Shown: positions 36,278-46,069, counted from the stretch's first letter. The stretch: 64,000 nt of DNA from Brevundimonas sp. (GCF_036963785.1 NZ_JBALUS010000008.1:5447-69446); one strand, 5' to 3'. Made by a program: numbers and translations. Notes: generated by a model not told the origin, from the letters alone.

Positions 36278-36357
36278 GACGGCTTTGCCGTCTGCAGGGA
36301 TTGACGAAACAGGCGACCCTCCGCCTATTGGCGCCCTTGGGGTCGGCAGGAGACCGG

Positions 36358-36915
36358 ATGACCGCTGTATTCGATCGTGATGCCCTGTCCGAAGCGCTCG
36401 GTCAGACCGGCCGGGGGGATCGTGCGGCGTTTCGCCGTGTGTATGAAGCGACCTCGGCGAAGCTGATGGGCGTGTGCCTGCGTATCTTGTCTGACCGGCA
36501 ACTGGCCGAGGACGTGATGCAGGAGATTTATCTGACCGTGTGGAACAAGGCCGCCAGTTTTGACCCCGGCCGCGCCAGCCCCATCACCTGGCTGGTGACG
36601 ATCGCGCGGAACCGGTCGATCGACCGGCTGCGCTCGGGGGCCATTGCGCGCAACAGCGTGCCGGTGGACGCGGCCTATGATCTGGCCGACGGGGCACCGT
36701 CGGCGCTCGATCACATCGAGCTGGCAGATGATGCCGGTCGCCTGGGCGTGTGCCTGGACGAGCTGGACGAAAAGGTCAGCCGGGTGATCCGCACGGCCTT
36801 TTTCGAGGGCGTCACCTATGAGGTTCTGGCCCAGCGCGAAGAGACGCCGCTCGGCACGATGAAAAGCTGGATTCGCAGGGGGCTGCTGAAACTGAGGAGC
36901 TGTCTGGAACAATGA
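36358..36915 (+). CDS. ECF sigma factor, SigK-like
   Basis: AEDVMQE..LTVW..A..FDP.R.SP.TWL.TIARNR.ID; GTMKSWIRRGL. Confidence 0.93.
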   Translation: MTAVFDRDALSEALGQTGRGDRAAFRRVYEATSAKLMGVCLRILSDRQLAEDVMQEIYLTVWNKAASFDPGRASPITWLVTIARNRSIDRLRSGAIARNSVPVDAAYDLADGAPSALDHIELADDAGRLGVCLDELDEKVSRVIRTAFFEGVTYEVLAQREETPLGTMKSWIRRGLLKLRSCLEQ

Positions 36916-37628
36916 CCGTTTCGGACCACGATGACCGCATCGCGCGGGCCGGCGAATATGCCCTTCGGGTATTGAGCCCGGCGGAAGAAGCCCAGGCGCG
37001 CGCCGATGCTGCGCGGGACCCGGCCTTTGGCGCCGAGGTCGACCGCTGGAACGACCAGTTGAGCCGGATGGCGGACGGGATCGCCCCGGTGCAGCCGTCG
37101 GCCAGCCTGTGGCCGCGTATCGTGGCGGCGACCGGCGGCGCCGCCAACGACAATGCCGTGACCTTCTGGCGGCGCTGGGCCATCGGCTCGACGGGTCTGC
37201 TGGCCGCCAGCCTGGCCGCCGTCGCCGTCATGATCGCCACGCCTGCGCCTGCGCCCGATCCGGCCACCACGCCGGTCGCCGGAGACATCACGCGGGTGGC
37301 CACCCTGAAGCTGGACAATGGCGCCACGGCCCTGACCCTGGCCTATGACAGCGTCACGGGTGAGCTGTATCTGGCGCCGACGCGGGAGATGGAAGGCGAT
37401 ACGCGCATTCCGCACCTGTGGCTGGTCCTGCCGGACGAGGGCGGTGTCCAGCTGGTCGGGGCCATCGATGGTCACGACACCTCGCGGCACAATCTTGAGG
37501 GTGTCATCGTCGGTCAGGCCACGCAGGCCATTGCGGTGGCCGTGTCCATGGAAGAGCCGGGCCACACGCCCAACCCCGATCACCCCGACGGGCCCGTGGT
37601 CGCCCAGGGCGAGTTCCAGCCGCTCTAG
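36912..37628 (+). CDS. Anti-sigma factor, RskA-like
   Basis: AGEYALRVL; single TM segment; C-terminal LWLV...AVSMEEPG. Confidence 0.88.
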   Translation: MTVSDHDDRIARAGEYALRVLSPAEEAQARADAARDPAFGAEVDRWNDQLSRMADGIAPVQPSASLWPRIVAATGGAANDNAVTFWRRWAIGSTGLLAASLAAVAVMIATPAPAPDPATTPVAGDITRVATLKLDNGATALTLAYDSVTGELYLAPTREMEGDTRIPHLWLVLPDEGGVQLVGAIDGHDTSRHNLEGVIVGQATQAIAVAVSMEEPGHTPNPDHPDGPVVAQGEFQPL

Positions 37629-37630
37629 AC

Positions 37631-37657
37631 TGCATCCGTTTCTGTCGGGTGGCCGTA
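37631..37657 (+). promoter_or_regulatory. Putative SigK-type ECF promoter
   Basis: TGCATCC-N16-CGTA, starting 3 bp after the anti-sigma stop. Confidence 0.5.
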
Positions 37658-37663
37658 GATACA

Positions 37664-37750
37664 GGTGACGACAGACGGGCAGGGCCTCCTTTGTTTGACT
37701 GTCGTCCAGCGGGGAGGCTCCCGTCCCTTCCATTGCCTCCCCGCTGTCCC
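37664..37750 (+). ncRNA. Candidate two-hairpin sRNA or structured leader
   Basis: Perfect 8-bp (37667-74/37699-706) and 12-bp (37707-18/37735-46) stems with CCUCCUU and CCCUUCC in the loops. Confidence 0.4.
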
Positions 37751-37884
37751 GGGACGGTCGAATGTGCGCGCTGCGCTCTGAATCCCTATCAAAAACAAGG
37801 CGCGAACCGGTTGGCGTAGCGATCTTCCCGACCGGGTCGCCAGGTTGATCACACTGTTTCCGAAGCATTTTCGGGAGAGTGGTG

Positions 37885-39276
37885 ATGAGCGATACGAGCG
37901 CACGGCTGGGCCTGCCCTATCTGGCGGCCGGGCAGATGCAGAAACATGTGACCCTGAACGAGGCCCTGACCCGGCTGGATGGTCTGGTGCAATGCTGCGT
38001 CACCAGCCGCAGTCTGGGGAGCCAGCCGGAGGCGCCCGCGAACGGCGCGCTCTACATCCTGCCGGACGGCGCGGAGGGGGCGGCGTGGTCGCTGCATCCG
38101 GCCGGCAGCCTGATGCGGGCGGAGGGCGGCGGCTGGACCCGCTTGACCGTTCCGGCGGGGCTGGTCTCGGTCATCGTGGACTCGGGCGAGATCGTCGTCT
38201 GGCACAAGGCCGACTGGCTGCCCCTGTCGGCTTTCCTCGACGACCTCCAGAACCTCGAGCGGCTGGGCGTCGGCGCCACGGCGGATGCGGCCAATCCCTT
38301 TCTGGCCAGGCTCAATTCGGCACTGTGGACCGCGCGGGAAACGGGTGACGGTGGCACGGGTGATCTGAGGCTGGTGCTGAACAAGACCGGTCCGTCGGCC
38401 GTGCTGTCACTGATCCTGCAGAGCGGCTGGTCGGGGCGGGCCGAACTGGGGCTGATCGGCGAGGATGCCTTTGGGCTGAAGGTCAGTGCCGACGGCTCGG
38501 CCTGGACCGAGGCGATGAAGGCCGATCCGTCGACGGGCCGGGTCAGATTTCCGCTTGGCGCCACGCGACGCGAGGCCACGCTTTTCACCGGGGAGGGAAG
38601 CTGGTCTCCGCCGGAATGGGCGCGATGGGTCGAGGCCACCGTCTTGGGGGCTGGCGGCGGTGGTGGCGCGGGCGACTGGGGCGCAAGCGGGACCGAAAGA
38701 CCAGGTGGCGGTGGCGGCGGTGGCGGTGGACTCAGCCACGCCGTCTGGGCCGTGGACAGCTTGCCGGGCGCGCTGGACCTGAGCGTGGGGGCGGGCGGTG
38801 CGCCCGGTGCGGACGGCGGTGTCACACGGATCCTGTCGGGCGGCGTGCAGTTGCTGGCGGCCGGAGGTGGTCGGGCGGGAGTGTCCGGGAGTGCCGGGGG
38901 TGAGGCAGGCGTCGCAGGCGACGGCCTGGGGCCAGGCATGACGGGCAGGGGAGGCGCCGGGGGCGGCCTGACCGCAGCGGATGGCGTCTCGGCGGCCGGG
39001 GACGGTGGCGCGGGGTCGATCCTGTTGCGACCCACAGAAGGCGGTGCGGGGGGAAGCGACGCCCCCGGCAGCTCGGGCGGATCTGTCGCCGAGCCGGTTC
39101 ACGGTCCAGCCGGGGGTGGCGGAGGCGGAGGCAGTGCCGCGCTGACCTCCGGCCATGCGGGCGGCGCAGGCGGTCTGTACGGCGCGGGCGGGGGTGGCGG
39201 TGGCGCCGGTGTCACGGCGGGCGGCACGGGCGGGGCCGGCGCCGATGGCCTGATCATCGTGGTGGCGGTCGGATGA
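37885..39276 (+). CDS. DUF2793 tail-fibre-like protein with a Gly-rich C-terminus
   Basis: RLGLPYLAAGQMQKHVTLNEAL..LD.LVQ; G.YI...A.GAW; LGVGATAD..NPF.ARLNSAL. Confidence 0.88.
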   Translation: MSDTSARLGLPYLAAGQMQKHVTLNEALTRLDGLVQCCVTSRSLGSQPEAPANGALYILPDGAEGAAWSLHPAGSLMRAEGGGWTRLTVPAGLVSVIVDSGEIVVWHKADWLPLSAFLDDLQNLERLGVGATADAANPFLARLNSALWTARETGDGGTGDLRLVLNKTGPSAVLSLILQSGWSGRAELGLIGEDAFGLKVSADGSAWTEAMKADPSTGRVRFPLGATRREATLFTGEGSWSPPEWARWVEATVLGAGGGGGAGDWGASGTERPGGGGGGGGGLSHAVWAVDSLPGALDLSVGAGGAPGADGGVTRILSGGVQLLAAGGGRAGVSGSAGGEAGVAGDGLGPGMTGRGGAGGGLTAADGVSAAGDGGAGSILLRPTEGGAGGSDAPGSSGGSVAEPVHGPAGGGGGGGSAALTSGHAGGAGGLYGAGGGGGGAGVTAGGTGGAGADGLIIVVAVG

Positions 39277-39437
39277 GCCGGCGCGTGAACGCCCGGGCGC
39301 CGCAGGATCGGGGCCTGCCCCTGCTGGATGCCGAGATGTGGGAGGCCCCGGCCCACCTGACGCTGGAAGACTGTCTGGACGAGATCGCCGCCGAGTTCGG
39401 GGGGCCGGACCGGCGGGACAGGGAGGACGAGCTTTGA
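39273..39437 (+). CDS. Small acidic hypothetical protein, 54 aa
   Basis: ATGA overlap with the DUF2793 stop; MSRRVNARAPQDRGLPLLDAEMWEAPAHLTLEDCLDEIAAEFGGPDRRDREDEL. Confidence 0.55.
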   Translation: MSRRVNARAPQDRGLPLLDAEMWEAPAHLTLEDCLDEIAAEFGGPDRRDREDEL

Positions 39438-39451
39438 GGGACACTGACCCG

Positions 39452-39709
39452 ATGAACCCACACGATGTGTCGCTGGCCGAAGGACGCTGGCTGTGGCGGC
39501 GACTGTTCGTCTTTATCACCAGTCTGGCGCTGTGGGCGCTGGTGCACCGTGCGGTCGAGCGCGCGCCGGCTGAAGCTCTGCCCGGCATCGTCGAACGTCT
39601 GCTGATGCTGATCGCCCTGATCACCGTGCTGTATCTGGTGGCGCCCACGGCCCAGCAACTGGTGGCGTTGAGCGTCCGTTTCCGGATCGGGGCGGGAGGG
39701 CGGCCATGA
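39452..39709 (+). CDS. Probable holin (two TM segments)
   Basis: 85 aa, two hydrophobic helices, directly upstream of and overlapping the endolysin. Confidence 0.6.
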   Translation: MNPHDVSLAEGRWLWRRLFVFITSLALWALVHRAVERAPAEALPGIVERLLMLIALITVLYLVAPTAQQLVALSVRFRIGAGGRP

Positions 39710-40092
39710 GCTATCGCTTTTCCGCCCGCTCGCGCCGCGCGCTTGAGGGCGTGCATCCGGATCTGGCCGCGGTGGCGGAGGCCGCCCTGGCGCTGTCGCC
39801 GGTCGATTTCATGGTGACCGAGGGCCTTCGGTCTCCGGCGCGGCAGGCCGCGCTGGTCAAGGCGGGGGCCAGTCGCACGCTCAACTCGCGCCATCTGACC
39901 GGGCACGCCGTTGATGTCGCAGCGGTCATCGACGGTCAGGCACGCTGGGACTGGCCCCTGTATCCGCGCATCGCCGCCGCCTTCAAACAGGCCGCGCGCG
40001 AGCGCGGGGTGAAGATCGTCTGGGGCGGCGACTGGCCGCGGCTGCGGGATGGCCCGCATTTCGAACTGGACCGGAAGGCCTATCCGGCATGA
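39706..40092 (+). CDS. M15-family peptidoglycan peptidase (endolysin)
   Basis: EGLRS..RQ; SRHLTGHAVD; WGGDW...DGPHFEL. Confidence 0.9.
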   Translation: MSYRFSARSRRALEGVHPDLAAVAEAALALSPVDFMVTEGLRSPARQAALVKAGASRTLNSRHLTGHAVDVAAVIDGQARWDWPLYPRIAAAFKQAARERGVKIVWGGDWPRLRDGPHFELDRKAYPA

Positions 40093-40499
40093 GGGAACTG
40101 CGATCCTGGACCTGGGTGGCGGGCGGTGTGGTCGCTGCGGTACTGGCGCTGGCGGCGGCCCACGGGTTGGGCCTGCGCTGGGACCCCTTTGACCTGCAGG
40201 GACGCAGGCTGGAGGCGGCCCGGTCCCGGGTAGCCCTGGCTGAGGCCGACGCCCACGCCCGTCGGGCCGAGCGGGACGGGGATCACACCGTCAGCCGCGA
40301 AGCCGCAGTCGTCCGTGACACCGAACTCGAGGTCGGGCGGGTGACCGCCACGGCCATCCAGCAAGCAAGAGAGGCCGATGATGCCGATACGCCGCTGGCG
40401 CCCGATCGGGTGCGCCGCCTTGATGATCATGACCGCGAGCTGTGCCGGCATGCGCCCGCCCTCTGCGCCGGAGCCGGTACGGCTGACCCTGCCGGTTGA
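40089..40499 (+). CDS. Rz-like inner-membrane spanin
   Basis: N-terminal TM segment plus coiled coil; follows the endolysin with an ATGA overlap. Confidence 0.65.
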   Translation: MRELRSWTWVAGGVVAAVLALAAAHGLGLRWDPFDLQGRRLEAARSRVALAEADAHARRAERDGDHTVSREAAVVRDTELEVGRVTATAIQQAREADDADTPLAPDRVRRLDDHDRELCRHAPALCAGAGTADPAG

Positions 40500-40692
40500 G
40501 GCGACGCGCCCGTGCCGGCTGGCGACGCTCGGCCCGTCGCCCACGATCGTGGATCTGGAAACCGCCTATATGGCGCGCGGGGAGGCGCTGGTGGCCTGTG
40601 ATGCAGCCCGTCGCCTGGCGGTGGCCACCCTGATGGCCGAGCGGGCTGCGCAGGCCATGGCCGCGAGGGCAAACCGGCAGAATTTGCCGTGA
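40378..40692 (+). CDS. Rz1-like outer-membrane spanin lipoprotein
   Basis: +1 frame, overlapping the Rz-like gene by 122 nt; lipobox-like MTAS-C; Pro-rich; L..CDA..R.. Confidence 0.65.
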   Translation: MMPIRRWRPIGCAALMIMTASCAGMRPPSAPEPVRLTLPVEATRPCRLATLGPSPTIVDLETAYMARGEALVACDAARRLAVATLMAERAAQAMAARANRQNLP

Positions 40693-40740
40693 ACCCGGCA
40701 GATTTTGCCGTTTTCGCTTGGCGCCCGGCAGAACCTGCCG
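40675..40740. promoter_or_regulatory. Three tandem ftr (FlbD) enhancers
   Basis: CGGCAGAATTTGCCG (40675), CGGCAGATTTTGCCG (40696), CGGCAGAACCTGCCG (40726). Confidence 0.75.
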
Positions 40741-40813
40741 GGCCAAAGGCGTGGTTAAGGCAACCTAACGCATAAAAAACAAGGACTTGAGTTTTGGCCC
40801 GCAAATGCGGCGG

Positions 40814-40829
40814 TGGCGCTGGTCTTGCT
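40814..40829 (+). promoter_or_regulatory. Sigma-54 promoter of flagellin
   Basis: TGGCGCTGGTCTTGCT = GG-N10-GC; IHF-like AAACAAGGACTTG upstream. Confidence 0.85.
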
Positions 40830-40901
40830 TGTCAGTGAACCGAGCAAAATGCTCCCGGCAGCCAAAACGGCGTCGGACACCTTGAAATAAGGACTATCGG
40901 T

Positions 40902-41735
40902 ATGCCGCTGAATAGCGTCAACACGAACACGGGCGCCATGATCGCCCTGCAGAACCTGCAATCCACCAATAACGAACTCTCCGTCGTCCAGTCGCGGATC
41001 AACACCGGCAAGAAGGTGTCGAACGCCAAGGACAACGGCGCCATCTGGGCTATCGCCCAGGGCCAGCGTTCGGAAATCGGTGCCCTGAACGCCGTCAAGG
41101 ACAGCCTGCAACGCGGCCAATCGGCCGTGGACGTCGGTATCGCTGCCGGCGAGTCGGTCTCCGAGCTGCTGATCCAGCTGAAGGAAAAGGCCCTGGCGGC
41201 CAGCGACACCTCGCTGACCACCTCGGCCCGCAAGGCCCTGAACGAGGACTTCAAGTCGATCCGTGACCAGGTCACGACCGTCGTCGCGAATGCCAAGTTC
41301 AACGGCGTCAACCTGCTGGACAACTCGACCGGCACCGCCGGCTTCAAGGCCCTGTCGAACGCCACGGGATCGACCATCAAGGTGGCGGGTGAAAACCTGT
41401 CGCTGGGTGGCACGAACGTGACCCTGGCCGCCACGGCGACCATCGGCACCGCCACTCTGGCCAACACCGCCCTGGCGACGATCAACACCTCGATCGACAA
41501 CGTCTCGTCGGCCCTGGCCCGCCTGGGCACGGGCGCCAACTCCCTCAGCACTCACCTCAAGTTCGTGAGCAAGCTGCAGGACAGCCTGGAAACCGGCGTG
41601 GGCAACCTGGTCGATGCCGACCTGGCCAAGGAAAGCGCCCGACTGCAAGCGCTGCAAACCAAGCAACAGCTGGGTGTGCAGGCTCTGTCGATCGCCAACT
41701 CCTCGACCTCCATCCTGCTCGGACTGTTCCGCTAA
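40902..41735 (+). CDS. Flagellin (Caulobacter Flj type)
   Basis: [15 protein letters not shown]; [20 protein letters not shown]. Confidence 0.97.
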
Positions 41736-41827
41736 GGAGCGATCTCAGGGGCGGGGGCGTTCGCGCCTCCGCCCCGTCGTCCGAGCCTTGAACCGAGGAC
41801 GTCGGCTCAGTCCCGACGCAGGGAGAC

Positions 41828-42109
41828 ATGGAAACACATGCGAAGATAGGACCCGTTACCGCTGTCGTTGCCCCCGCAGGTTCTGCCGCCGGGGGCGATT
41901 TCAACCAGTCCCGTGCCTCCCAGGAGGCAGACCGGGCAGCCCGCTACAAACTGGTCATCGAGCAAGGCGCCCGCCAAGGCGTCTTTATCTACAAGGTGCT
42001 CGACCGTGAGACCGGCGAAGTGGTGCGTCAGTTGCCCCGGGAAGAGGTGGTCCGGTTGAAGGATCAGAATGGCTATGCGGCCGGAGCGGTGATCAGCACC
42101 ACCGTCTGA
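41828..42109 (+). CDS. flaG: FlaG-like protein
   Basis: YKVLDRETGEVVRQLPREEV. Confidence 0.75.
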   Translation: METHAKIGPVTAVVAPAGSAAGGDFNQSRASQEADRAARYKLVIEQGARQGVFIYKVLDRETGEVVRQLPREEVVRLKDQNGYAAGAVISTTV

Positions 42110-42243
42110 AGGGTCAGCAGTTCAGTCATCAGGCCACGCAGGGGGTGCCCCGCGTGGTTAAACGTCGTGGTTATCGCGCGTTAACCATGTGCAAATGAAA
42201 TCATCCCTAGCCTGTCGTCACATCAGCGAGAGGCCCGATTCGG

Positions 42244-43077
42244 ATGACGAACAGCGTCCACACCAATACTTCAGCGGCGATCGCCCTGCAGAACCTGACC
42301 ACGACCAACAACAGGTTGAGCGATGTCCAGGGCCGGATCAGCACCGGGCTGAAGGTCCAGGGCGCCAAGGACAATGCCGCCATCTGGGCCATCGCCCAGG
42401 GGCAGCGCGCTGACATCGGTGCTCTCTCGGCCGTCAAGCAGAGCCTGGACCGCGCGACCTCGATCGCGGATGTCGCCCTCTCGGCCGGCGAGTCGGTCTC
42501 GGACCTGCTGAATCAGCTCAAGGAAAAGGTGGTTGCGGCCAAGGATGAGTCGCTCGGCACCCAGTCCCGCAAGCTGCTGGACGCGGACTTCAAGGCGCTG
42601 CTGCGCGCGCTCCAGTCGTCGGTTCAGAACGCCAGCTTCGACGGCGGCAACATCCTGAACGGCAGCCTGACGAACGGCATCAAATTCCTCGCCAATGCCG
42701 ATGCAAGCTCGTCGATCACCCTGTCCAGCAAGGATCTGAGCCTGAGCGGCTCGATCATCAGCCTGTCGCTGTCGGATTCCCTCCTGACCCTGACCGGGGC
42801 GACCAACGCCCTGTCGGCGCTGGACAGCTCGATCACAGCGCTGAACTCGGCGCTGGGTGAGATCGGGGCGCAGGCCAAGCAGATCGAGGCGCACAACATC
42901 TTTGTGACCAAGCTGGTCGATACGCTGGAATCCGGTGTCGGCAATCTGGTCGATGCCGATCTGGCCAAGGAAAGCGCCCGGCTTCAGGCCCTGCAGGTCC
43001 AGCAGCAACTGGGTGCCCAGGCGCTGTCGATTGCCAACCAGGCGCCCCAGGTCATCCTGTCGCTGTTCCGCAGCTAG
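42244..43077 (+). CDS. Flagellin, second and more divergent copy
   Basis: SVHTNTSAAIALQNL; [20 protein letters not shown]. Confidence 0.96.
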   Translation: MTNSVHTNTSAAIALQNLTTTNNRLSDVQGRISTGLKVQGAKDNAAIWAIAQGQRADIGALSAVKQSLDRATSIADVALSAGESVSDLLNQLKEKVVAAKDESLGTQSRKLLDADFKALLRALQSSVQNASFDGGNILNGSLTNGIKFLANADASSSITLSSKDLSLSGSIISLSLSDSLLTLTGATNALSALDSSITALNSALGEIGAQAKQIEAHNIFVTKLVDTLESGVGNLVDADLAKESARLQALQVQQQLGAQALSIANQAPQVILSLFRS

Positions 43078-43345
43078 GGCAGTCTGTCCCGCTGAAGGCG
43101 CCCGTCAGGGCAGGCCGGCGCGCCCGATCGAGATCGGGGCCGGCCGGCTCCGGCGCTCGGTTCGGCTGGCGAAGCCGTACAGGGACAGGAAGGAATACAG
43201 CAGCCTACTCAACGCAACCATGGACCTAAGCTCCATCGGGCCGTTTCAGCGAACGTGTCATTAACCCCTATGGCGATTCGCGGTTCCGTGGACGGACGTT
43301 AACGCTTCATTGCGACGCAGCCGTCAGGATGGCGGGGAGCGCGCC

Positions 43346-46069
43346 ATGATCGACAACAGCTATCTTCTCGGCCTGTTTGGAGGCACATCGACCTTCTCCT
43401 CCGGGGGACTGTCAGGCACGTCTTCGCTCGCCACAAAAAAGGCCCAGCCGACACCGCCGTGGTCCTCCAGTGCGGTGGTCCCCGAGCAGGAGGCGCTGGT
43501 GCGCTCCGCTCTCGGCGGCCGGCGTCTGATCAACGAGGACGCAGCCAAGCTGGATGTCGCATCGGCGTCCGACGATTATCGCCGCCTGTTCGCCCTCTAC
43601 CAGGGGCTGGAAAGCCTGAATGCCCTGGCCAACCGGGCCGGGGTCAAGGGCGTCAGCAGCACGGAGTTGTCCCTGATCACCAAGCGGTTCGATCAGGGAC
43701 TCAAGGAAATCACCAGCTACGTCGCCTCGGCGCCGCTCAACGATGTGCGGTTGGTCGCCGGCGTGACGGAGTCGATCAGCAAGACCAGCGCCGGTGTGCG
43801 CCGGGACTCGGCCATCTCGATCACCTCGCCGATCCATGAAGGCGACATCGCCAGCCCGGTGACGGCGTTCGAGGGTGACGTGGTCTTCGACATCAACGTC
43901 AAACGGTTGAACGAAACCCATACGGTTCGCATCGACCTGTCCGAGATGGGCGGGGCAGCGCGCACCCTGGGCTCCGTAACCGCCCACATCAACGACAAGC
44001 TTCAGGCCGCAGGGCTTGAGACGCGGATCGGCCGCGAGCGCCAGGCGGCGGAGGTGCGCACCCTGCAGGTCGGCGGTCGCACCGTGACCTTGCCGGCAGG
44101 CCCGGACCTGTGGTCGCTGGCCATCCGCGGCGTGTCGACCGAGGCTGTGTCCTTCTCGGCGCCGGCCCCTTCGGACGCCGTCTATGTGGTTCAGGGGACG
44201 GGCACGGCCGGCGCGCACGAGGTGCTGAAGTTTCAGGCCGATACCGCGACCGCCGCGACCGCCGCCAGCGCCCGCGTGGGCGAGACCCAATGGGTTGACG
44301 GACGCGTGTCCCAGACCCCGCTGCCCGAAGGCATCAAGACCGTCCGGGCCAGCGCAACCGGGCCGGACGGCGCCCTGTGGCTGGTGGCCGACATGGAGGA
44401 AGGCCCGGGCAATCTGCCGATCAAGGGCCAGTCCGACGTCGCCCTGATCAAGCTGGATTCTGCGGGCCGCGTAGTCAGCACCCGGGCGCTCGGGGCCGCC
44501 GATCAGGCTTCCGGATATGCGTTGGCAGTCGATGATGCGGGACGGGTCGCCGTCGCCGGCTCGGTCACGGGGGCCCTGATCCCCGGCAAGAGCGGCGATG
44601 TGGCCGGCGAGGTCGACAGCTTCGTCACCCTCTACGACGGCGACGGCGAGGAACTGTGGACCCAGCGGCGGGGCGCCCGCGCGGCGGACGAAGCCACGGG
44701 TGTAGCCTTCGGACCCGGCGGCCAGGTGATCGTCACAGGCCGTGCGAGATCGGCCATGCCGGGCGCCGCCGGGGTCGGTGGCTGGGACTCCTATGTTCAG
44801 ACCATCACCAGCAGCCAGCCCTATCCGACGGCGGCCTGGGACGCGAAGATCGACGGGACGCTCCAGTTCGGCACCACGGGCGATGATGCCGTGCAGGCGA
44901 CGGCCGTCAGCGGCGACAGCCTCTATACCGCCGGGGAAGAGGACGGCCGCCTGGTCGTGCGCCGCTTCCAGCTGACCGCAGGGGGCGAGCCGCAACTGCT
45001 GTCGACGCGCGACCTCGGCGCCATGAATGGCGAGGTCAAGGGACTGGAGATCGATCAGGGCCAGGTGATCGTCGCCGGAGTGACCCGCAACGCGACGCTG
45101 GACGTCGGCACCGTCAATCAGGCCCACAACGGCGGGCTGGATGCCTTCGTCGCGGTCCTGTCCGGGGATCTGACGGCCTCCGGGGCCGAGCGCCTGACCT
45201 ATATCGGCACCGAGAACGAGGATGCGGTCTCGCACGTCAAACTGCTGGACGGCAAGCTGTGGATGACGGGAACGTCGGCCCGCTCGGTGTCGGCCGAGGA
45301 TGACGACCCCGTGCAGGGCTATCTCAGCCGGGTCGACCCCCTGACCGGCACGGTCGAGTGGAGCCGCAGCTGGGCCGGCCAGAACGAACAGGCCGCCCCG
45401 CTGACCCTGGCGGTCGCCAGCGGCGGCAGCAGTGTGCTGGACCGGCTGGGCCTTCCGTCCGGAGAGATCGTCCAGAGCGAGTCGAAGAAGCTGGTCGATG
45501 CCACCGCGCTGCGTGTGGGCGACCGGTTCTCGGTCGTGCCGGCCTCGGGCGGACGGTCGGTCGCGGTGACCATTGATGCCCGCGATACCCTGCAGACCCT
45601 GGCCCGGAAGATCGAGATTGCGTCCGGATCCCGCCTCAAAGTCACCGTCGCCTCCGAGAGCGCCACGGCCGAGAATGCCCGCGAGGGGCTGAATTCAGTG
45701 CTGGCCGGGGTGCAGCGCCTGTCGATCATGGCGCGCGACGGGCGCGAGGGCGCGGTCCTGGTGTCCGGCGAACCGGGGCGGGATGCGCTGGCCGGGCTGG
45801 GCCTTTCCGCGGGCTTCATCGGACCGACGGCCACCGAGGATGGGCCCCGGACCTTCGGGCTGGACCTGCCGCAGGCGCTGAGCCTGTTGACCAAGGACGC
45901 CCGCACCGCGTCGGGCGAGCGCCTGCAGGCCGCCATGAAGTCGGTCCGGGACGCGTACCGGTCGCTGGCGCCGGCACCGGCCAGCAGCGCGACCTCGGGG
46001 GCGGTTCCAGCCTATCTGACGGCACAGCTGGCAAACTACCAGGCGGCGCTGGCGCGTCTGGGCGGCTGA
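43346..46069 (+). CDS. FlaEY-like large flagellar-locus protein with beta-propeller-like repeats
   Basis: MIDNSYLLGLF start; repeated G.....D...G..V...G.V motifs; downstream of the flagellins as in Caulobacter. Confidence 0.7.
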   Translation: MIDNSYLLGLFGGTSTFSSGGLSGTSSLATKKAQPTPPWSSSAVVPEQEALVRSALGGRRLINEDAAKLDVASASDDYRRLFALYQGLESLNALANRAGVKGVSSTELSLITKRFDQGLKEITSYVASAPLNDVRLVAGVTESISKTSAGVRRDSAISITSPIHEGDIASPVTAFEGDVVFDINVKRLNETHTVRIDLSEMGGAARTLGSVTAHINDKLQAAGLETRIGRERQAAEVRTLQVGGRTVTLPAGPDLWSLAIRGVSTEAVSFSAPAPSDAVYVVQGTGTAGAHEVLKFQADTATAATAASARVGETQWVDGRVSQTPLPEGIKTVRASATGPDGALWLVADMEEGPGNLPIKGQSDVALIKLDSAGRVVSTRALGAADQASGYALAVDDAGRVAVAGSVTGALIPGKSGDVAGEVDSFVTLYDGDGEELWTQRRGARAADEATGVAFGPGGQVIVTGRARSAMPGAAGVGGWDSYVQTITSSQPYPTAAWDAKIDGTLQFGTTGDDAVQATAVSGDSLYTAGEEDGRLVVRRFQLTAGGEPQLLSTRDLGAMNGEVKGLEIDQGQVIVAGVTRNATLDVGTVNQAHNGGLDAFVAVLSGDLTASGAERLTYIGTENEDAVSHVKLLDGKLWMTGTSARSVSAEDDDPVQGYLSRVDPLTGTVEWSRSWAGQNEQAAPLTLAVASGGSSVLDRLGLPSGEIVQSESKKLVDATALRVGDRFSVVPASGGRSVAVTIDARDTLQTLARKIEIASGSRLKVTVASESATAENAREGLNSVLAGVQRLSIMARDGREGAVLVSGEPGRDALAGLGLSAGFIGPTATEDGPRTFGLDLPQALSLLTKDARTASGERLQAAMKSVRDAYRSLAPAPASSATSGAVPAYLTAQLANYQAALARLGG

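Follow-up and report, generated by a model that had tools for sequence, protein, structure and literature searches.

A conserved tail-fibre and lysis operon of Brevundimonas and its probable link to a gene transfer agent

Type 10 secretion systems (T10SSs) release large cytoplasmic assemblies from specialised cells. Gene transfer agents (GTAs) also leave their producers, and the route differs by model. In Rhodobacter capsulatus a multilocus organisation is already known: the tail fibre of the particle (RcGTA), the glycine-rich DUF2793 protein Rcc00171, is encoded away from the head-tail cluster, and the endolysin/holin pair used for release, rcc00555/rcc00556, occupies a syntenic chromosomal site (PMC5026251). 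Caulobacter crescentus has neither holin nor endolysin; it lyses through the immunity-like, CARD-NLR-like LypABC system and leaves ghost cells, and lypABC is absent from most Caulobacter species (PMC13236601). Here we analyzed an operon of Brevundimonas sp. that joins a DUF2793 tail-fibre gene to a set of lysis genes. It lies at positions 37885-40692 (+ strand) of the window, by which we mean the whole stretch of 64,000 nucleotides under study (GCF_036963785.1, NZ_JBALUS010000008.1:5447-69446). The operon is real and domesticated, and we consider it probable that it represents the detached 3' attachment-and-release module of the Brevundimonas GTA. A literature search returned no paper describing a release module for this GTA.

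Six tightly packed open reading frames (ORFs) make up the operon. With the signals at its two ends, the features are as follows, in window coordinates (TM, transmembrane; SD, Shine-Dalgarno).

37844-37890, + strand: leader hairpin, pairing the SD sequence GGAG (37874-37877) and the start codon ATG at 37885; core stem 37857-37880
37885-39276, + strand: tail fibre, with an N-terminal DUF2793 and a C-terminal Gly-rich domain
39273-39437, + strand: small acidic ORF of 54 aa, in ATGA overlap with the fibre stop codon
39452-39709, + strand: holin candidate of 85 aa, with two predicted TM segments, next to the endolysin gene
39706-40092, + strand: endolysin of 128 aa, a zinc L-Ala-D-Glu endopeptidase of the M15C family
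40089-40499, + strand: i-spanin (Rz-like) of 136 aa, with an N-terminal TM segment, a charged helical periplasmic part and a conserved C-terminal Cys
40378-40692, + strand: o-spanin (Rz1-like) lipoprotein of 104 aa, in the +1 frame, overlapping the i-spanin gene by 122 nt
40675-40720, + strand: intrinsic terminator, a 15-bp stem with 8 GC pairs followed by a T-run; the stem covers the o-spanin stop codon

A first-pass annotation made from the sequence alone had read the locus as fibre, small ORF, holin, M15 endolysin and overlapping Rz/Rz1, and all of these genes were recovered, the holin as a candidate. The same annotation had called the GC content host-like. This did not hold: the operon has 72-73% GC versus a window mean of about 68%, the excess being due to Gly codons.

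The longest ORF of the fibre gene begins at GTG 37879, and orthologues align with ATG 37885. Pfam profiles identified DUF2793 (E 7e-21; 74.3 bits against a cutoff of 27) and Gly_rich_2 (E 4.6e-6), and the PHROG matches are phage structural and tail families (phrog_25093, E 4e-32). The gene is the only DUF2793 gene in the genome. The small ORF, with a GC content at third codon positions of 0.89, matched no Pfam or PHROG family and is weakly conserved (89% identity in B. halotolerans; recognisable in 30 of 101 loci); possibly it is a fibre chaperone or a lysis regulator. The holin candidate is present in 99 of the 101 loci. It has two hydrophobic segments, invariant residues E10, W13, R16 and R17, and an invariant Y61-L62-x-A64-P65 motif. 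Its stop codon overlaps the endolysin start, and ATGA overlaps are seen at both the holin/endolysin and the endolysin/Rz junctions.

The endolysin matches Peptidase_M15_4 (E 1.7e-11) and the endolysin family phrog_465 (E 1.4e-60); solved structures related to it include ChiX (PDB 5opz, E 1.7e-42) and the T5 endolysin (2mxz, E 4.5e-20). SRHLTGHAxD and DGPHFEL motifs are kept in at least 95% of 93 distinct orthologues, and conservation of the catalytic His/Asp/His motifs indicates that the catalytic site is intact. In the i-spanin, WDP and hDreLC motifs are conserved in 67 orthologues; its sole family match (phrog_214, E 0.07) is weak and is no evidence by itself. The o-spanin matches phrog_456 (E 0.003) and has a signal peptide, with a Pro-rich stretch after the lipobox Cys, which is kept in at least 95% of 71 orthologues. 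Its gene overlaps with Rz and is not embedded in it. The predicted pair thus has the features of a two-component spanin, an Rz with an N-terminal TM segment and an Rz1 lipoprotein in an overlapping frame.

Folding of the leader gave a minimum free energy of -18.9 kcal/mol (z -3.3 against 200 shuffles). The SD sequence is paired as the 3' arm of a hairpin in 60 of 63 distinct Brevundimonas leaders, and the stem sequences are many and different. These folds were made per sequence, after RNAalifold run on a MAFFT alignment had given none, the stems being misaligned. An Rfam scan of 37400-41000, which includes the leader hairpin, found no family match. Control by CtrA was considered and rejected, a TTAA-N7-TTAA-like site being present in only 2 of the 63 leaders.

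Several lines of evidence tie the operon to a GTA. The DUF2793 family co-evolves with GTA genes (PMC10883770). Residues 10-119 of the fibre, in its N-terminal domain, match chain S of PDB 8gtc (E 1.6e-11), the fibre of roseophage R4C; in the RcGTA-like baseplate of that phage, three fibre trimers are seated on the megatron, at its fibre-binding domain (PMC10276861). Judged by sequence, this is a fibre of the RcGTA rcc00171 type. Its phage homologues occur only in alphaproteobacterial siphophages, with the gene placed directly after the g15 homologue. Among sequenced phages, DUF2793 fibres matched only siphophages, several of which have a GTA-like g15 adjoining, and no contractile-tailed phage matched.

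A GTA cluster, which the first-pass annotation had proposed to look for, is indeed present in this genome. A single, complete-looking RcGTA-like head-tail cluster extends from TerL to g15 on another contig (C4:261.9-278.1 kb), in the order small-terminase-like start, TerL, portal, protease, capsid and so on to a g15 of 1252 aa. Its g12-g15 tail module lies at C4:272.6-278.1 kb (DUF2460, E 4.6e-80). The genome holds one HK97-type capsid gene and one DUF2460 (g12) gene, both on this contig. Since a DnaJ-like gene follows immediately 3' of g15, the cluster has no fibre or hydrolase in cis. The operon lies on a different contig from g15 here, and in complete genomes the distance between them ranges from 74 kb to more than 1 Mb.

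The candidate activators are found 22 kb upstream of the cluster (C4:238332-241517, with the pair itself at 239-240 kb). A gafY-like gene (118 aa, DnaA domain IV) and a gafZ-like gene (238 aa, DUF6456, E 1.1e-41) have overlapping stop and start codons and are divergent from a gene for a CtrA-like OmpR-family response regulator. DUF6456 we take to be the C-terminal domain of GafA. Homology of GafY to DnaA domain IV has been described (PMC9632790). As for the cluster itself, in 16 Brevundimonas species (loci L038-L053) it is placed after a conserved hybrid histidine kinase gene. Its promoter has a conserved block CGCCTGAGGACGCTGGTC followed by a CTATGGTT-like -10 element that ends about 10 nt before the first ATG (C4:261700-261800; L038-L053), an arrangement that points to a first gene with little or no leader.

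Gene order across the class connects the lysis genes to GTAs as well. In a class-wide sample of 20 DUF2793-bearing genomes the fibre gene comes after g15 in 14, in 13 of them directly. A gene for a peptidoglycan hydrolase was found within about 3 kb after the fibre in five of the seven cis loci tested, and a sixth gave a weak hit. These hydrolases belong to Hydrolase_2, Peptidase_M15_3 or SLT, and small membrane proteins are often encoded alongside. RcGTA-like clusters therefore usually finish, on the 3' side, in fibre plus hydrolase, and the Brevundimonas operon resembles such an end in detached form.

The distribution within Caulobacteraceae is consistent with this. DUF2793 is found in the same 12 genera that give strong g12 hits, and 11 genera have neither; the exceptions are genera g6, g11 (7 of 10 genomes) and g22, which have weak or sporadic g12 hits and no fibre. 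This co-distribution is to be read as a pattern and not as a statistic, relatives not being independent samples. In genus g17 the fibre gene adjoins the same DUF4112 and EEP genes as in Brevundimonas, with no lysis genes after it. The shared position indicates that the fibre site is older than the genus Brevundimonas.

The leader points in the same direction. Hairpins that pair the SD sequence also stand before detached fibre genes elsewhere in Caulobacteraceae, a Caulobacter-like genus included (genus g5: L065, L075 and L076; g27: L071 and L072; g17: L069; g14: L073). In genus g5 the stem has at least 16 bp, at about -40 kcal/mol, and is preceded by the CAGACTGAT box that Brevundimonas also has. 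GafYZ strongly induces CCNA_02456, the fibre homologue of C. crescentus (PMC9632790). Given the shared leader and this induction, the Brevundimonas lysis genes stand behind what appears to be a fibre leader of the GTA regulon.

We next consider conservation in the genus, based on 121 species-level genomes, 96 of them of high quality. The DUF2793 fibre was found in 114 (94 of the high-quality set), almost always in one copy, and the M15 endolysin in 107 (88 of the high-quality set). The nearest related locus is that of B. halotolerans MCS24 (endolysin identity 95%). Nineteen of 20 species loci examined are at the same chromosomal site, in the order EEP nuclease, DUF4112, sometimes an extracytoplasmic function (ECF) sigma factor with RskA, fibre, holin, endolysin, Rz/Rz1 and flagellins. 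In the twentieth a rearrangement has left fibre and lysis genes 84 kb apart, both parts still being present. Protein identities of the operon resemble those of flanking housekeeping genes. In draft assemblies a contig often starts some 500 bp from the endolysin gene, because many drafts break inside the GGC-rich C-terminal part of the fibre gene.

No stop codon was seen in high-scoring segment pairs of fibre, holin or endolysin across about 100 loci. Pairwise ratios of nonsynonymous to synonymous substitution rates (dN/dS) were 0.04-0.20 for the endolysin, 0.09-0.30 for the holin, 0.13-0.33 for the fibre N-terminal domain, 0.16-0.48 for Rz and 0.16-0.71 for the overlapping o-spanin gene Rz1, with dS values similar to those of flanking genes. 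Together, synteny, purifying selection and flank-like dS exclude a decaying or recently acquired prophage. The first-pass annotation had favoured a domesticated satellite over a decaying prophage and had suggested conservation and dN/dS across the genus as a check; a near-universal, single-copy operon under purifying selection, at one site in 19 of 20 loci and with no stops in fibre, holin or endolysin, supports it well. Of the two findings that it had named as contrary, strain-specific occurrence and the lack of a GTA cluster, neither was made.

The species without the M15 enzyme are informative about the endolysin slot. Five of them were checked (G024, G052, G085, G094 and G105), and the fibre is at the locus in all; in most, holin, spanin and flagellin genes can also be recognised around the fibre. 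In G105, which was read in detail, the slot between holin and Rz is filled by an ORF of 209 aa (L058:7486-8115) with a weak PG_binding_1 domain and a Tlde1 domain (L,D-transpeptidase fold). We read the loss of M15 in G105 as a probable non-orthologous replacement. The presence of a different peptidoglycan-acting ORF in the same slot argues for selection on lysis itself. A Tlde1-type enzyme is unusual for an endolysin position (other loci: L059-L062). Recognisable spanins are missing in two species, G044 and G100.

How the operon would serve a GTA can be outlined from its genes. With the GTA programme on, presumably under gafYZ-type activators, the operon would be transcribed, and the leader hairpin would have to open to expose the ribosome-binding site and start codon. 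Fibre trimers would dock through their DUF2793 N-terminal domain onto the fibre-binding domain of the g15 "megatron" encoded on the other contig. Stop/start overlaps would couple translation of the downstream genes. The two-TM protein, if a holin, would permeabilise the inner membrane; the M15 L-Ala-D-Glu endopeptidase would then cut peptidoglycan, and Rz/Rz1 would fuse inner and outer membranes, the expected lysis letting the particles out.

A number of observations weigh against this interpretation. One set concerns the holin candidate, which has no Pfam or PHROG match (nor do 31 orthologues match any PHROG); a profile search with it returned only Brevundimonas proteins, all annotated "hypothetical protein". 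Because family matches are absent, the designation follows position, small size and topology, which fit a holin. A second concerns regulation. When a position-weight matrix built from nine GTA-cluster promoters was run upstream of the fibre, similarity was weak: 29% of leaders exceeded the 95th percentile of the background, and the best hits, at -60 to -43, fell in two registers. A shared operator of GTA cluster and operon was considered, and the similarity is too weak for us to claim one. A third is distribution: one species (G114) has an apparently complete cluster yet no fibre, and outside Brevundimonas the M15 endolysin occurs only in Caulobacteraceae genera that lack a GTA. In sister genera g8 and g26 it is found in another context, with no fibre.

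Further contrary observations come from species with an eroded GTA cluster. The g12 gene was found in 102 of the 121 genomes. Of the ten high-quality genomes without it, nine keep the fibre and seven the M15 endolysin. Five g12-lacking genomes were examined further, and what is left of their clusters is as follows.

G045: a junction between capsid and the final 340 residues of g15
G050: C-terminal 500 residues of g15
G074: a junction between a truncated portal and the final 240 residues of g15
G081: fragments only
G106: nothing; no trace of capsid, g12 or g15

The operon was confirmed to be intact in G045, G050, G074 and G081; in G106 fibre and endolysin are present, on separate contigs. The dN/dS values are low even in species pairs where both clusters are incomplete, lacking TerL or more (endolysin 0.04, G065 versus G074). 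The internal deletions differ between the four remnant species, and the g15 C-terminus tends to survive. TerL is missing from four of 16 GTA clusters examined; those species carry a TerL homologue elsewhere (50-57% identity), possibly a relocated TerL, and beside these homologues there was no other GTA gene and no g1-like start. Retention of the operon after GTA loss may mean that the losses are recent, or the operon may be valuable by itself.

The main rival is a GTA-independent lysis system, domesticated in the manner of ChiWXYZ of Serratia marcescens and with a GTA link that is historical only; it is possible, though we think it unlikely. A subpopulation would release either the fibre-like protein, the one candidate cargo linked to the lysis genes, or cell contents in general, DNA for instance. 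What was found here is a chromosomal operon of candidate holin, endopeptidase and spanins outside any prophage, with a ChiX-like enzyme: among solved structures the endolysin is best related to the T10SS endopeptidase ChiX, and the genes for the candidate holin, endopeptidase, i-spanin and o-spanin follow one another as in chiWXYZ. The operon's integrity and purifying selection where the GTA cluster is deleted or TerL-less fit such a system, and an unrelated alphaproteobacterium without g12 (G387) has a similar detached fibre and M15 endolysin. However, endolysins of the M15C family are common among phages, with 1282 matching records, so that similarity to ChiX says little. The fibre N-terminal domain is a baseplate-docking domain with no known free-standing role, and the fibre tracks the GTA at genus level. 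The GTA deletions, moreover, all differ and could be recent.

The G387 locus deserves a description of its own. This genome, from another alphaproteobacterial family and without a g12 hit, carries a detached DUF2793 fibre and lysis module at L187:8935-11904, encoding in order the fibre, a 97-aa ORF, a membrane protein, an M15 endolysin (39% identical) and a small membrane protein. Going by its gene content, it is a second, independent stand-alone fibre-plus-lysis module.

A related proposal is that the operon now acts throughout the genus as an autonomous programmed-lysis or T10SS-like system, selected even after GTA deletion (BR2-1, DC300-4 and others). Hairpin-gated translation would here lead to release of the fibre, of DNA or of other cell contents, to the benefit of the population. 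We regard it as doubtful. The first-pass annotation had offered GTA release, tailocin release and programmed lysis as functions. Comparative evidence favours the GTA, and free-standing programmed lysis may still apply, since in several species the operon has outlasted the GTA cluster; the tailocin is rejected, as detailed below.

That the module belongs to some other phage-like element, be it a tailocin or the P2-like myovirus of contig C2, is very improbable. The P2-like element is there (C2, about 516-548 kb), with sheath, tube, tape measure, baseplate, capsid, terminase and portal genes, and B. diminuta SCAU 5 has a second M15 endolysin, 77% identical to that of the window, about 8 kb from a sheath gene. 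But the P2-like sheath occurs in only 10 of the 121 species, the closest relative not among them, against a near-universal presence of the operon, and DUF2793 fibres matched siphophages only. Release of a tailocin falls away because the sole contractile-tail element has head genes and the same sporadic occurrence. The P2-like element also encodes a tape measure of 1050 aa and a fibre of 859 aa, with no tyrosine integrase nearby.

The neighbours of the operon are ordinary chromosomal genes, and 30-54 kb of the window is housekeeping. Upstream lies the gene pair for an ECF sigma factor and an RskA-type anti-sigma factor (window 36301-37628), which directly precedes the operon in about half of the species and elsewhere is not at that position. 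Downstream are two flagellin genes and, further out, genes for a CCA-adding enzyme, NUDIX, SSB, PhoD and PurL. The flagellin array (window 40902-43077) comprises 2 to 6 tandem paralogues depending on species. It is followed in all species examined by a 919-aa protein (window 43310-46069) with no Pfam match and 50-92% identity, and then by two more unmatched ORFs of 221 and 147 aa.

The first-pass annotation had noted that capsid, terminase, integrase and att site were lacking nearby, which proved correct for the locus, the P2-like element sitting elsewhere. No integrase was found on the whole 102-kb contig (C8), no capsid or terminase gene in the 30-54 kb part of the window, which was read, and no att-like repeats flanking the operon; the only tRNA gene lies 28 kb away. 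Integrase, att repeats, a border tRNA and sporadic distribution, the marks of a prophage, are thus all wanting. A cryptic prophage remnant, functionless and not yet decayed, is hardly credible: although every part derives from phages and modules have been exchanged in the endolysin slot, the site is the same in 19 of 20 species loci, the fibre, holin and endolysin reading frames carry no stops and have dN/dS of 0.04-0.3 at dS of 0.1-1.1, and there is no integrase, att repeat or adjacent tRNA.

If the operon does serve the Brevundimonas GTA, it is a third arrangement inside one bacterial family. It is a concrete, testable candidate for the release route of this GTA and bears on GTA release in Caulobacterales. 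What is new is that the fibre gene shares one operon with a full set of candidate holin, endolysin and spanins, that this operon is fixed at a single site throughout the genus, that its SD-hiding leader is conserved, and that it survives loss of the GTA cluster. The conserved leader hairpin could time a lethal operon. Species that keep the operon where the GTA is deleted offer a natural experiment on whether GTA-derived lysis modules gain a life of their own.

Several described systems resemble the operon in part. As with RcGTA, GTA genes are spread over several loci, and a DUF2793 Gly-rich fibre is detached from the head-tail cluster (PMC5026251). In R. capsulatus, however, fibre and lysis genes form two separate loci, whereas in Brevundimonas they form one translationally coupled operon, which includes spanins. 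The Brevundimonas endolysin is an M15 L-Ala-D-Glu peptidase, set beside rcc00555 by description. Its fibre locus is syntenic genus-wide, and synteny of rcc00171 holds only among close relatives. With C. crescentus, a member of the same family, Brevundimonas shares homology of the head-tail cluster, an activator split into GafY and GafZ, and a DUF2793 fibre gene that is detached and stands after an SD-pairing hairpin; unlike C. crescentus, it has genes for a candidate holin, an endolysin and spanins, in canonical fashion, joined to that for the fibre.

At the 3' ends of RcGTA-like clusters, and in phages RcRhea, vB_PmaS-R3 and R4C, g15 is followed by fibre and hydrolase, with or without small membrane proteins. 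This order is likely to be the ancestral arrangement of the Brevundimonas module, which differs in being separated from g15 and in its hydrolase family (M15_4, as against Hydrolase_2, M15_3 or SLT elsewhere). With T10SSs (ChiWXYZ of S. marcescens and the lysis cassette of Yersinia entomophaga) the operon shares a domesticated chromosomal arrangement of (candidate) holin, endopeptidase and spanin genes and a ChiX-related enzyme. The difference lies in the cargo, which is chitinases or toxins in those systems and in Brevundimonas would be GTA particles or their fibre.

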